Counted from the first letter of the stretch, positions 34,229-53,471 are shown. The stretch is 64,000 bases of DNA from an uncultured Geminicoccaceae bacterium (GCA_964393275.1 CAYMTA010000009.1:53544-117543); one strand, 5' to 3'. A program made the numbers and translations. Notes: generated by a model not told the origin, from the letters alone.

Positions 34229-34306
34229 GACCTCCCCCCATGTGCCGACCGGTCGTGCCCAGGGGGCGGACAAGAACCGGCGGTCCGCCGATGCTTGCCC
34301 ACATCC

Positions 34307-34320
34307 TTGACCACGGTCAA
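34307..34320. promoter_or_regulatory. FNR/NNR-type box TTGACCACGGTCAA, core of a 26-bp palindrome (34301-34326)
   Basis: Read directly: ACATCCTTGAC-CACG-GTCAAGGATGT. About 85 bp from both divergent start codons. Confidence 0.75.
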
Positions 34321-34397
34321 GGATGTGCGCCCGCTTTGCCCGCTTACTCGGGCTTCGCCATCGAGGCCCGTTGCGGCCGGGCATCCGGGAGGGGCGC

Positions 34398-34580
34398 ATG
34401 GAAATCGTTCTCTTCACCGCCGTCGCCGCGCTGCTCTATCTCGCGGCCGACAGGCTCCTCGTCCTCATCGAGCGGCGGCGGGGCGGCCCCTTGGCGAACC
34501 GCTCGGTTGTCTTCTTCCTCCTGCTTCTCGGGCTGGCGCTGCCGGCCTTCGCGTTGATCCGGTCGTTGCTGGGCACTTGA
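34398..34580 (+). CDS. Hypothetical small 2-TM membrane protein
   Basis: Internal ATG after GGGAGG. MEIVLFTAVAALLYLAADRLLVLIERRR...VVFFLLLLGLALPAFALI. Confidence 0.45.
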   Translation: MEIVLFTAVAALLYLAADRLLVLIERRRGGPLANRSVVFFLLLLGLALPAFALIRSLLGT

Positions 34581-34652
34581 CCGGGTCGATGCGAACGACT
34601 GAGATAGCCGATAATCGTGTCGCGATCCGTCCGTGCATGAAAGGGAGAGATC

Positions 34653-35165
34653 ATGAAAACGCGTCAGTGGCGTGACAATTCGCTGCAATCGCCGAAGGGC
34701 GCTTCAAATCCGGTGCTGGCGCTGGCGCTCGTGGGCGGCCTCGCGGCCATGGCGCCGACCTCGCCGGCGCTTGCCGGCGAGGCCGTCGGCCCCCTGTTGC
34801 CGCCGAACGTGCGCGCCATGCTGCTCGAGGAGATGGCGGCGGTGCTCGGCGCCACCCAGATGATCCTCGACGCCCTGGTGCGCGGCGAGGACGCCACCGT
34901 GGCCGAGGAGGCACAGGCGATCCACGACAGCTTCATTCTCGAGCAGCAGATGACGGATGCGGATATGCAGGCCCTGCTGGCCGCCGCTCCGCCGGAATTT
35001 GTCGAGCTCGACGGTGCCTTCCACCAGCTGGCCGCCGACCTTGCCGAAGCCGCCCGCGCGGGCGAGCAGGCCCGCCAGCGCGGGCTGTTCGGGGAGATGG
35101 TCGAGGCCTGCGCCGTCTGCCACGCGCGCTTCGCGGCCAACCTCTTTCCGGGCTTCACCCAATGA
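34653..35165 (+). CDS. Class II c-type cytochrome (cytochrome c'-like)
   Basis: AGGGAGAG RBS and a signal peptide. Helical, Ala/Glu-rich body with a single CAVCH heme motif near the C-terminus. Confidence 0.6.
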   Translation: MKTRQWRDNSLQSPKGASNPVLALALVGGLAAMAPTSPALAGEAVGPLLPPNVRAMLLEEMAAVLGATQMILDALVRGEDATVAEEAQAIHDSFILEQQMTDADMQALLAAAPPEFVELDGAFHQLAADLAEAARAGEQARQRGLFGEMVEACAVCHARFAANLFPGFTQ

Positions 35166-35220
35166 CCTCGCCCGAGATGTGTCCGGGCCTCGGCATCACA
35201 TCGCGTGCGCTCGCCGCCAC

Positions 35221-50415: not shown

Positions 50416-50746
50416 CGTCGATCCCCTCCTGCAGGCGACCGACCAGCCAGATCACCTCGTCCTCGGGCAAAAGCCCCCGCCAGGGCGGCATCGGCCGGCC
50501 CGGCACCCCGTCCAGGATGATGTGGACGAGACTTTCGCCGGGCTGGCCATCGAGCGCCTCGGGCAGGAGCGGCGGCCCGAGCCCGCCCTTCAGCGTGAGG
50601 CCGTGGCAGGAGCCGCAATCGTGGCGCAAGAGGTGGATGAGCTCGCCCTGCCGCTGAGCGGACGGCTCGGCGGCGGCGGCGAGGCCGGCCAGGGCCGCGA
50701 TCCCGAGGCCGAGCGCCAGGCGCTCAGCCCAGATGCCGGCGGGCAT
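50405..50746 (-). CDS. nirC: Cytochrome c55X NirC
   Basis: Small signal-peptide protein with CGSCH, positioned between nirE and nirF. Confidence 0.8.
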   Translation of the reverse strand: MPAGIWAERLALGLGIAALAGLAAAAEPSAQRQGELIHLLRHDCGSCHGLTLKGGLGPPLLPEALDGQPGESLVHIILDGVPGRPMPPWRGLLPEDEVIWLVGRLQEGIDDAP

Positions 50747-51527
50747 CCGCCTCCTCCTGCAAGGTGTCATCGGCACGACTGGTCGAGCCGGCCGCCAGGA
50801 TGTCGCCGAGGGCCACGACCGCACCCACCGCGACCAGCACCGGGGCCGCGAGCCCGGCGGCCGCCACGGCCTCCGGCAGGTTGGCCAGCGTCGCCCGGCA
50901 GACCTGCTCACCGGGCTGGGTGCCGGATGCCACGGCCACGGAAGGGGTCGAGGGGTCGAGGCCGGCGCCGATCAGCCCGTCCCTGAACCGACCGAGGCTG
51001 GCGAGCGCCATGTAGACGACGAGCGTGGTCTTGGGGTCGGCCAGGGCCGCCCAGTCGATATCGAGCTCGCCCACCTCGCAGCTGTGACCGGTGATCAGGC
51101 GCACCCCGGTCGCCATGCCGCGATGGGTCAAAGGAATGCCGGCGGCGGCGAGAACGCCCGAGGCCGCGGTGATGCCGGGCACCACCTCGAACGGGATGCC
51201 GTGCGCCACGAGGTGCAAGGCCTCCTCGCCACCTCGGCCGAAAACGTAAGGGTCGCCGCCCTTGAGCCGCACCACCCGCCGGCCGGAGCGGGCCAGACGG
51301 ACGAGCAGCGCGTTGATGGAATCCTGCGAGAGCAGGTGCTCGCCCGCCGCCTTGCCGGCACAGATCCGCTGCACGCCGGCCGGCACGAGCGCCAGGATTT
51401 CGGCCGAGACGAGCCGGTCGTAGACGACCACGTCGGCCGTCTCCAGATGGCGGAGCGCCTTGAGCGTCAGGAGCTCCGGGTCACCCGGTCCGGCGCCGAC
51501 CAGGGCGACTGAGGCTTTCTCGGGCAT
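50724..51527 (-). CDS. nirE: Uroporphyrinogen-III C-methyltransferase NirE
   Basis: VGAGPGDPELLTLKA, LKGGDPYVFGRGGEE, VVPGITAA. Confidence 0.9.
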   Translation of the reverse strand: MPEKASVALVGAGPGDPELLTLKALRHLETADVVVYDRLVSAEILALVPAGVQRICAGKAAGEHLLSQDSINALLVRLARSGRRVVRLKGGDPYVFGRGGEEALHLVAHGIPFEVVPGITAASGVLAAAGIPLTHRGMATGVRLITGHSCEVGELDIDWAALADPKTTLVVYMALASLGRFRDGLIGAGLDPSTPSVAVASGTQPGEQVCRATLANLPEAVAAAGLAAPVLVAVGAVVALGDILAAGSTSRADDTLQEEADARRHLG

Positions 51528-51597
51528 GCCAGAGGCTCCGCCGGACAAAACGAGCCGGCCGGAGCGGCGGCAGAAGCACCACCGCTCCGGCAATTGA

Positions 51598-53364
51598 TCA
51601 ATAGACGTCGTTGATGGTGTTGTAGACGTTGAACTTGCCGGTCGGCGTCACCAGCCGCGGATCCTTGATCACGTGCTTGAGGGTCCGCGTCTTGTCGTCG
51701 ACGACGACGATCGCCGATTCCTGGTCCTGGGCGTTCCAGACCGAGAACCAGACCTCCGTGCCGTCCTCGTTGTACTCCGGCTGGACGATGCGGCGCACGC
51801 CTTCCGTGATGCCCGACCACTCGCCGATCGGCAGCTCCTCGTAGCCGGCATCGAGATCATTGATATCGAAGACCGCGACCGACGACGCGATGCTCGGCTC
51901 GGGATTGAGCGGTGTGTCGACCCAGAGGTTCTTGGACTTGGGATGGGTCTTGATGAAGAGCGACCCGCCGCCCAGGCTCTCCAGGGTCTGCACGACCTGC
52001 CAGGCCTGGTCGGGATGACCGTCGGGATCGGTGCCGATCAGCGTGACCGTCCCGTCGCCGAGATGCGTCGTGGCCCAGACCGGCCCGAACTCGGGATGGA
52101 CGAAATTGGCGCCGCGACCAGGATGCGGCGTCTGCCCGTCGGTGTCGATGAGCGCCGTGAGCTCCCCCTTCTCCGTATCGATCACGGCGATCTTGTCCAT
52201 CGCGTTCGCGGCCACGAGGAAGTAGCGGCCGGTCGAGTCGAAGCCGCCGTCATGGAGGAAGCGGGCCGCATCGATCTCGCGGGTCTTCAGGTTCGCCAGA
52301 TCCTCGTAATTGACGAGCAGGACCTGGCCCGTCTCCTTGACGTTGACCACGAACTCGGGGCTGTGGTGCGAGGCGACGATCGCGGCCACGCGCGGCTCCG
52401 GATGATACTCCTGCTCATCCACCGTGTAGCCCCGGGTCGAGACGACCTTCAAGGGCTCCAGCGTGGTGCCGTCGGCGATGACGAAGTGCGGTGGCCAGTA
52501 GGCGCCGGCGATGACGAGCTTGTCCTCCCAGCCCTCGGCCTTCGAGCTCTCGACCGAGCGCGCCTCGATGCCGATCTTCAGCTCGGCCACGACCGCGGGC
52601 GGCTCCATCCAGAGGTCGATCATGCTGATCAGGGCGTCGCGGCCGATCACGTAGAGGTAGCGGCTGGAAGCCGAGAGCCTGGAGATGTGCACGGCATAGC
52701 CGGTCTTCAGGATCGTCTTGATCTCGTAGGTCGAGCCGTCGATCAGCGCGACCTCGCCGGCGTCGCGCAAGGTCACCGAGAAGAGGTTATCAATATCGAG
52801 ATCGTTCAGCTTCTCGGTCGGCCGATCGGCCACCGGGACCAGCACACGCCAGTTGTCACGCATCTCCGCCATGCCCCATTCCGGCGGCTGCGGCGGGGTG
52901 TAGAAGAGGTAGCGGGCCATGAGATCGACCTGCTCGGGCGAAAGATCGCCCGAGGTGCCCCAGTTCGGCATGCCACCCGGCGAACCGTACTCGATGAAGG
53001 CATGCACGTAATCCGTCCCGCGCTCCTTCATGATGTCGGGCGTCAGCGGCCGGCCGGTCGCACCCTTGCGCAGCACGCCGTGGCAGCCGGCGCAGCGCTG
53101 GAAGTAGATCACCTGGGCCTGCTGGAACTCGTCCGTGGTGAGCGGCTTGATGCCCATTTCCTGGAGCGCCGGGGCGAGACCAGGCTCCGCCAGCTTCATC
53201 TCGCTCAGAACGTCGAATTCCGGCACATAGGTCGTGCCCGGAACCGGCGTGTGCCCCTTGAGATCCTTCGGATCCGGCTTTTCCTGCGCCACCGCGATCC
53301 CTGCCGCCAGCAACGCCCACGCACCCAGCGCGGTCGCCGTCATAAGACCAGCCCGTCTCATCAT
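51598..53364 (-). CDS. nirS: Cytochrome cd1 nitrite reductase NirS
   Basis: CAGCH heme c motif plus a d1 propeller with many NirS-typical blocks. The ATG at 53364 is preceded by GGGGAGG (53385 is the alternative). Confidence 0.95.
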
Positions 53365-53457
53365 CTTGCCTCGCCTCCCCGCCATTGCCTGCTTCAGGGT
53401 ATCGTCCGTACCGACGCACGATGGCGGCGACGCTAACTACCCGGTCGCTATCGGTCC

Positions 53458-53471
53458 TTGACCTGCGTCAA
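53458..53471. promoter_or_regulatory. FNR/NNR-type box TTGACCTGCGTCAA in the nirS-nirI divergent region
   Basis: Perfect palindrome, about 100 bp from the nirS start and about 40 bp from the nirI start. Confidence 0.75.

Follow-up and report, generated by a model that had tools for sequence, protein, structure and literature searches.

Four FNR-type boxes at predicted promoters of an eNOR-type operon and a nirS cluster in an uncultured Geminicoccaceae bacterium

The DNA analysed here is a 64-kb window (C9:53544-117543) from the genome of an uncultured Geminicoccaceae bacterium, an assembly of 4.97 Mb in 213 contigs with a GC content of 69%. Within it, four copies of an FNR-type inverted repeat (boxes 1 to 4) lie among the genes for a Crp/Fnr regulator, a small membrane protein, a cytochrome c'-like protein, a heme-copper oxidase-like operon, a TrpD-like protein, and a nirS cluster with a divergent nirI. 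Open reading frames (ORFs) were chosen by their GC content at third codon positions (GC3) and then checked against Pfam and NCBIfam. The features are collected in Table 1.

A pattern search for TTGAY-N4-RTCAA gives exactly four perfect matches in the window, at 34307, 35221, 42793 and 53458. An earlier sequence-only reading of this DNA had described four FNR-family inverted repeats of the form TTGAC-N4-(G/A)TCAA, and the search returns the same coordinates, with the same genes around each box. In dinucleotide-preserving shuffles of the window the pattern occurs 0.06 times, and never more than once. There are just 19 such boxes in the whole genome, and four of them fall inside 19.2 kb here, where approximately 0.07 would be expected (Poisson P ~1e-6 for four, by our own arithmetic from 19 boxes in 4.97 Mb). 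This is the strongest cluster of the motif class in the genome. The more specific sequence cTTGAC-N4-GTCAAg has three copies genome-wide, all of them in this cluster. Each of the four occupies an intergenic region, at a distance of 40-160 bp from start codons; box 1 is 85 bp from the start codon of the regulator gene and also 85 bp from that of the 60-residue ORF. The core is flanked directly by C and G (cTTGA...TCAAg) in every case. The wider cc...gg flank that had been proposed for all four is present at box 1 (tcc..gga), box 3 (gcc..ggc) and box 4 (tcc..gga) but not at box 2 (cac..gga).

Table 1. Boxes, predicted promoter elements and genes of the region, in window coordinates.
Feature	Position	Strand	Remarks
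Box 1, TTGACCACGGTCAA	34307..34320	none	core of 28-bp palindrome 34300-34327
Box 2, TTGACTGCGGTCAA	35221..35234	+	predicted eNOR operon promoter box; 160 bp before 39-residue peptide gene
Box 3, TTGACTTGGATCAA	42793..42806	+	6 bp past hemerythrin stop, 66 bp before TrpD-like start
Box 4, TTGACCTGCGTCAA	53458..53471	none	common to divergent nirS and nirI predicted promoters
Box 1, tm60 side, CTTACT	34343-34348	+	weak -10-like element
Box 2, eNOR operon, TAGCGT	35258-35263	+	-10-like; one base beyond class II distance
Box 3, TrpD-like gene, CATAGT	42829-42834	+	-10-like; at class II distance
Box 4, nirS side, TAGCGT	53430-53435	-	-10-like; at class II distance
Box 4, nirI side, TAGAGT	53494-53499	+	-10-like; at class II distance
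Crp/Fnr regulator gene, putative DNR/NNR class, 262 residues	33440..34228	-	Pfam cNMP_binding and HTH_Crp_2
tm60, 60-residue membrane ORF	34398..34580	+	conserved neighbour upstream of eNOR operons (tblastn); no Pfam family
Cytochrome c'-like gene	34653..35165	+	C-terminal CAVCH; Pfam Cytochrom_C_2, 28.5 bits
Predicted eNOR-type NO reductase core	35387..37850	+	COX2/COX1 matches
39-residue peptide (pep39)	35387-35506	+	first gene of eNOR operon
CuA subunit II, COX2-like	35548-36129	+	CuA motif CNEFCGIGHHLM
Subunit I, COX1-like	36132-37850	+	closest PDB match T. thermophilus ba3
Remainder of eNOR operon	37857..42787	+	six genes
Heme O synthase	37857-38732	+	eNOR operon
SCO-like protein	38713-39549	+	eNOR operon; C-terminal transmembrane helix
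Cytochrome b + 2x[4Fe-4S] + FlpD fusion	39561-41150	+	eNOR operon
166-residue protein of unknown function	41143-41643	+	eNOR operon
SCO1/SenC	41671-42324	+	eNOR operon; second SenC kept in few of the 80 related loci
Bacteriohemerythrin	42344-42787	+	eNOR operon
TrpD2/YbiB-like gene, 343 residues	42872..43903	+	NCBIfam PRK09071, 333 bits
cbiX-like, nirN, nirJ, nirD/L/G/H-type, nirF, nirE, nirS	43900..53385	-	Pfam
nirS	51598-53385	-	end of heme d1/nir run, faces box 4
nirI, 132-residue ORF, nirX block	53504..57047	+	three frames beyond box 4
nirI, NosR-like	53504-55723	+	Fer4_5, FMN_bind; NCBIfam NosR 709 bits, under its cut-off of 1000
132-residue ORF	55720-56118	+	between nirI and nirX; no NCBIfam match
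nirX/ApbE	55686-57047 (longest frame)	+	ApbE

The operon behind box 2 requires a closer look. Its subunit II carries the CuA motifs HGF...CNEFCGIGHHLM and matches the CoxB and NosZ C-terminal models. Among PDB sequences, subunit I is closest to the ba3 oxidase of Thermus thermophilus (153 bits), which relates it to the B family, and the histidines for both hemes and for CuB/FeB are present (TAHG, GLGH, SAHH and GHFH). In the alignment, GHSSQQ of subunit I lies on GHPIVY of ba3, so that the cross-linking Tyr237 is replaced by Gln. The residue at this position is Tyr in O2 reductases, Glu in cNOR and qNOR, Asn in sNOR and bNOR, Gln in eNOR and Asp in gNOR (PMC8756737, Table A4), and the eNOR of Rhodothermus marinus reduces nitric oxide (NO) but not O2 (Murali et al. 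2024, PMC11214002). By its Gln signature, its CuA site and its B-family relation, the operon is assigned to the eNOR-type NO reductases. The genome has seven heme-copper oxidase genes in all, of which three are A-type, two cbb3-type, one eNOR-like and one sNOR-like, and the cNOR/qNOR signature is found in none of the seven. It also contains nirS, nosZ and a nar-linked narK-like transporter gene. Taken together with the eNOR signature, this makes the eNOR-like enzyme the best candidate for the respiratory NO reductase of the organism, and eNOR would be a natural kind of target for NNR/DNR regulators.

Like the eNOR family, of which the R. marinus enzyme is the characterised member, the operon combines the B-family relation, a CuA subunit II and Gln in place of Tyr with heme-modifying genes. 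It differs in having a heme O synthase, where many other eNOR operons have a CtaA homologue, and in its conserved partners, namely the SCO-like protein, the cytochrome b-FeS-FlpD fusion, the 166-residue protein and the hemerythrin. The fusion, cytochrome b-[4Fe-4S]2-FlpD/MvhD-like, could be an electron-input module or have a role in cofactor maturation.

For comparison, GTDB genomes were scanned for related loci, giving 80 loci with 66-97% identity to subunit I. The closest are Geminicoccaceae metagenome-assembled genomes (MAGs), and the others are alpha- and gammaproteobacterial MAGs. According to tblastn, the order (tm60)-pep39-II-I-(ctaB)-SCO-like-cytb/FeS-166aa-hemerythrin is kept in most of them, tm60 being upstream of the operon in 40 of the 80, and the operon often adjoins a homologous regulator gene and nirS/nirI. 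A perfect box within 320 bp upstream of the 39-residue gene, equivalent to box 2, is present in 58 of the 76 usable loci; approximately 1.4 would be expected, given a background of 74 boxes over the 1.27 Mb of these loci, which makes about 0.019 for every 320 bp. Of the 58, 22 also have a homologous regulator gene no more than 3.3 kb away.

The 58 orthologous sites and box 2 were then aligned on the box, giving 59 promoters. Outside the core, there is conservation of C at -1 (69%) and of GG at +15 and +16 (78% and 86%). Further downstream, T, A, A and T are found at box positions 37, 38, 41 and 42 in 68%, 58%, 49% and 58% of the promoters. This TAnnAT pattern has the appearance of a -10 element, which would place the start of transcription at about position 49 and thus the centre of the box (7.5) at -41.5, and implies the class II geometry of FNR activators. 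Matching hexamers are present at boxes 2 and 3 and on both sides of box 4, and a weak one on the tm60 side of box 1 (Table 1). A generic scan for sigma-70 promoters and terminators gave nothing useful at the four promoters, as is expected of activator-dependent promoters that lack a -35 element.

These observations bear on another reading, that the boxes have no regulatory role and are palindromes that arose by chance or were left behind by a repeated element. All that can be said for it is that the motif is short, with 10 specified bases. The shuffles and the uniformly intergenic placement close to start codons argue against it, as does the finding that the positions are kept in distant taxa whose intergenic DNA otherwise diverges, with a -10 element at a fixed distance. 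We consider it most improbable.

Box 4 lies between the divergent nirS and nirI genes, with a -10-like hexamer on either side. Paracoccus and Dinoroseobacter have bidirectional nirS/nirI (nosR2) promoters of this kind. In Dinoroseobacter shibae, it has been shown experimentally that nirS and nosR2 are both served by one bidirectional box that lies between them, at -39.5 and -41.5, with DnrD as the main activator and FnrL as a co-activator (PMC5398030). Among the relatives, six of seven divergent nirS-nirI intergenic regions contain at least one box, and four of them (L053, L066, L070 and L071) contain two, 41-43 bp apart. The relatives with two boxes have longer spacers and one box per promoter; the spacer here is 118 bp long and has a single common box.

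Equivalents of box 1 are found upstream of tm60 in 11 of 40 loci, and in four of the five closest relatives, where they keep the same distance (-86 to -94 from tm60). On the regulator side of box 1 there is no -10-like hexamer, and the GG on that side is not kept in relatives; autoregulation from this box is therefore unsupported. By tblastn, the cytochrome c' gene is without a counterpart at all of the 80 related loci, and it looks like a lineage-specific insertion into the regulon. In the closest relatives the eNOR box comes directly after tm60.

The most obvious candidate to bind the boxes is encoded beside box 1. The protein matches both PF00027 (cNMP-binding) and PF13545 (HTH_Crp_2), its recognition helix is ETFSR, of the E--SR type, and its sequence has no N-terminal Cys cluster of the FNR type for a [4Fe-4S] centre. 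When compared with all PDB sequences, its top named match is DNR of Pseudomonas aeruginosa (3dkw, 115.8 bits), while CRP reaches at most 48 bits and FixK2 33.8 bits. On the basis of its domains, its helix, the absence of the cysteines and these scores, the protein is assigned to the DNR/NNR class, in agreement with the sequence-only reading, which had called the regulon NNR-type. Proteins of this class are thought to sense NO through a bound heme.

The boxes themselves point to the same class. The published DNR consensus is CTTGATnnnnATCAAG, for a subgroup that includes Paracoccus NNR, and that of the alphaproteobacterial NnrR proteins is TTGCGnnnnCGCAA / ctTTGcgnnnncgCAAag, of the form TTGCG-N4-CGCAA (Rodionov et al., PMC1274295). 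The window boxes are TTGAC-N4-(G/A)TCAA, and the sequence cTTGAC-N4-GTCAAg with its C/G flanks agrees with the pattern for DNR/NNR but not with that for NnrR. The system does resemble NnrR of Rhodobacter sphaeroides and Bradyrhizobium in that a Cys-less FNR paralogue would activate nir, nor and accessory genes in an alphaproteobacterium. It differs from it in the motif and in that nnrS, a core NnrR target, is boxless here.

The genome nevertheless contains more than one protein that could bind such boxes. It has seven full-length Crp/Fnr paralogues. An FnrL-like one (C34:37411-38121) has the Cys cluster CCGALVDCANCDIRPLAIC and the helix ETVSR, and a NarR-like one on contig C128, with the helix ENLSR, adjoins a narK-like gene. 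Paracoccus has a comparable trio in FnrP, NNR and NarR (PMC4771820). In Pseudomonas, the Dnr box is reported to be indistinguishable from the Anr box (PMC5398030). With several paralogues that have helices of the E--SR or E--AR type, and with Dnr and Anr boxes so alike, sequence alone does not decide between the NNR-like protein and the FnrL paralogue at the boxes, or tell if the two act there together, and what we infer about the actor has to be read in this light.

The sequence-only reading had suggested a genome scan with a weight matrix. Here, a 20-bp matrix was built exclusively from the 58 sites of other genomes, and with it the four window boxes rank 2nd to 5th genome-wide. The top match (C26:28527) precedes bchJ, encoding bacteriochlorophyll 4-vinyl reductase (TIGR02019, 132 bits), by 30 bp when the longest ORF is taken. 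It is probable that photosynthesis genes are present in the organism and are controlled in the FNR manner. Since bchJ comes first, the flanks do not cleanly split an NNR class of sites from an FnrL class, and the use of the matrix with flanks as a separator of the two was abandoned. Lower-ranked matches are found upstream of hemN-like, ccoN-like, fnrL-like and narK-like genes. In addition, a box with one mismatch, TTGATCCAGATCAT, precedes the likely start of nosR (C6:37311, upstream of nosZ) by about 80 bp. The description of a local regulon is thus justified as far as the cluster of four is concerned, but the regulon is not purely local, as shown by the sites at hemN-like, ccoN-like, bchJ, narK-like and, with one mismatch, nosR. 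No box was found within 500 bp of nnrS (C37:38762-39886), and neither nnrS nor the sNOR-like operon on contig C5 has an upstream box even when up to two mismatches are allowed.

The sNOR-like operon (C5:30963-33060) represents a second non-canonical heme-copper enzyme, with a CuA-type subunit II and a subunit I of 485 residues. Our first guess that it was norCB was dropped, because its sequence GHVFIN has Asn at the Tyr position.

On the basis of these observations, we hypothesise that the four boxes are functional binding sites of a dimeric Crp/Fnr activator, most likely the local DNR/NNR-class protein, acting in class II geometry. We put the probability of this at roughly 0.7. Each box would overlap the -35 region of an activator-dependent sigma-70 promoter. 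The activator would most likely be the protein encoded beside box 1, possibly assisted by the FnrL-like O2 sensor, whose gene lies outside the window, and the trigger would be NO from nitrite reduction as it starts at low O2. Box 4 would then switch on nirI-nirX in one direction and, in the other, nirS together with the heme d1 genes; box 2 the eNOR-type operon with its cofactor and assembly genes; box 1 the small membrane protein and an NO-binding cytochrome c'; and box 3 the TrpD2/YbiB-like gene. Joint switching of the nir and eNOR units would couple the production of NO to its removal. The idea in the sequence-only reading that the oxidase-like operon is under the same control as nirS is well supported by the eNOR identity, by the box in 58 of 76 loci and by the predicted class II geometry. 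The parts of this scheme that we infer from sequence are the identity of the binding paralogue, NO as the signal and the positions at which transcription starts.

Several observations weigh against it. A perfect box directly upstream of the 39-residue gene is missing in 18 of the 76 loci; in many of these, tm60 directly precedes the gene, and transcription may begin at a more distant point upstream. No sigma-54-type promoter was found in the 18. The -10-like element at box 1 is weak on the tm60 side and absent on the regulator side. At least four other paralogues have helices of the E--SR or E--AR type, one of them being the FnrL-like protein with its Cys cluster. The top matrix match is at bchJ, a typical target of O2 control of the FnrL type. 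Finally, nnrS and the sNOR-like second enzyme are without boxes.

Some of these points lead to the main alternative, namely that the boxes are functional but that the main regulator is the O2-sensing FnrL-like protein, responding to anoxia and not to NO. The adjacent DNR/NNR-like protein would then be a minor co-regulator or have other targets. The FnrL-like paralogue is present and has a box upstream of its own gene, and boxes with the same core are found at the classical FnrL targets ccoN-like, hemN-like and bchJ. Moreover, FnrL of D. shibae co-activates nirS, nor and nos, besides the similarity of Anr and Dnr boxes in Pseudomonas (PMC5398030). Against this, the main drivers of nirS and nor in the systems studied are the NO-sensing paralogues, namely NNR in Paracoccus, DNR in Pseudomonas and DnrD in D. 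shibae (PMC1274295, PMC5398030). A DNR/NNR-class gene lies at box 1 and recurs beside the eNOR operons of relatives, and the C...GG flanks of the window boxes are missing at the ccoN-like, fnrL and narK-like boxes. We therefore regard control mainly by FnrL as unlikely, although it is the strongest of the alternatives, and retain the DNR/NNR-class protein as the probable activator.

A further member of the set is the TrpD-like gene behind box 3, which the sequence-only reading had placed under the control that nirS has. Its product matches the NCBIfam model PRK09071 ('glycosyl transferase family protein') with 333 bits, while the trpD model scores 77 bits against a cut-off of 199, and its best PDB matches are YbiB/TrpD2 proteins. 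TrpD binds phosphoribosyl pyrophosphate (PRPP) through the motifs GTGGD and KHGN. At the aligned places this protein has PSYADRHRQ and MHGVEG, as in YbiB. An anthranilate phosphoribosyltransferase was therefore rejected, the PRPP motifs being lost and the trpD score far under the cut-off, and the gene is classed as YbiB/TrpD2-like. The members of this family are nucleic-acid-binding paralogues of TrpD, under LexA control in E. coli. The present gene shares with them the closest matches to known structures and the loss of the PRPP motifs. It differs in belonging to another NCBIfam equivalog (PRK09071, not the YbiB model PRK08136), in being preceded by an FNR-type box or placed last in an eNOR operon, and in its co-occurrence with nirS.

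The control of this gene by boxes has parallels in five other loci, which supports that part of the earlier claim. Perfect boxes are found upstream of TrpD-like genes in L023, L026, L104 (two boxes) and L106, and in L022 a box lies upstream of a cytochrome c gene that precedes the TrpD-like gene. A different arrangement is seen in L020, the closest relative (subunit I 97% identical), where the TrpD-like gene starts about 25 bp after the hemerythrin stop and has no box, and in L105, where it also follows directly on hemerythrin without a box. The spacer between hemerythrin and the TrpD-like gene in the window (42788-42871) exceeds that of L020 by about 60 bp, and these additional bases contain box 3 with its -10-like element; this looks like a recent gain or loss of an internal promoter. 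It could thus be argued that box 3 is not a separate promoter at all, and that the eNOR operon simply ends with the TrpD-like gene, the box being a recent and possibly neutral local insertion. Both the boxless arrangement of L020 and L105 and the extra sequence around box 3 would fit this. It does not readily explain why L023, L026, L104 and L106, which are independent lineages, have perfect boxes before their TrpD-like genes, or the presence of CATAGT at the class II distance from box 3. We find this reading quite unlikely, and prefer box 3 as a promoter in its own right. The TrpD-like gene would be under eNOR-type control in either case, with or without a box of its own.

The link to denitrification is wider than this locus. 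Of 400 alphaproteobacterial genomes taken as one sample, 28 have cd1-type nir genes, and 17 of these contain an orthologue of the TrpD-like gene, against 22 of the 372 others (odds ratio 24.6, Fisher p 1.7e-12, uncorrected for phylogeny). In several genomes (L101-L129) it adjoins nirN, nirS or cbiX. The gene is thus a candidate for an overlooked accessory gene of nirS/eNOR denitrification, one possibility for its role being the protection or repair of nucleic acids under NO stress.

As a denitrification switch, a system of this kind is well known and ordinary. It has much in common with DNR of Pseudomonas, NNR of Paracoccus denitrificans and DnrD of D. shibae: the class of regulator, with no Fe-S cysteines and an E--SR helix; an FNR-like box with C/G flanks (CTTGATnnnnATCAAG, PMC1274295); class II geometry, here predicted; a single bidirectional box for nirS and a divergent gene of the nirI/nosR2 type (PMC5398030); and a regulator gene beside its targets. 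The differences are that the NO reductase target here is an eNOR-type operon and not norCB, that the half-sites are TTGAC/GTCAA and not TTGAT/ATCAA, and that there are additional predicted members in the 60-residue membrane ORF, the cytochrome c' and the TrpD2-like gene.

What appears to be new is that eNOR operons are a conserved target, at a constant predicted class II spacing, in many uncultured proteobacteria, together with the conserved set of partners in these operons and the link between the TrpD2-like gene and nirS. The paper on eNOR (Murali et al. 2024, PMC11214002) has nothing on regulation. In the literature searched, no description of an FNR-type box at eNOR operons was found. It is conceivable, and only a little short of an even chance in our estimate, that we are dealing with an undescribed NO-responsive module of uncultured Alpha- and Gammaproteobacteria, in which a class II promoter of the DNR/NNR type drives a fixed eNOR operon, and with a TrpD2/YbiB-like accessory of denitrification by cd1-nitrite reductase and eNOR.

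The interest of such a module lies in the fact that NO reductases determine how much N2O is released by denitrifiers. The eNOR enzymes are abundant in metagenomes, but to our knowledge just one has been characterised and their regulation has not been described. A DNR/NNR-type promoter at eNOR, in genomes that have nirS and no cNOR or qNOR, lends independent genomic support to eNOR as the physiological NO reductase of these denitrifiers. The conserved promoters are concrete ones to test, and the partners in the operon, like the TrpD2-like gene, are candidates for missing functions in the handling of NO or the assembly of cofactors.

It is worth adding two points on the genes beyond box 4. The class II start predicted for nirI, at about 53506, falls on the earliest codons at which translation could begin (GTG 53504 and ATG 53507). 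Either the mRNA would be leaderless, or translation would start at a downstream in-frame GTG, just before a hydrophobic segment. The longest frame for nirX overlaps in its 5' part with the 132-residue ORF, and the true start of nirX is thus probably further downstream.

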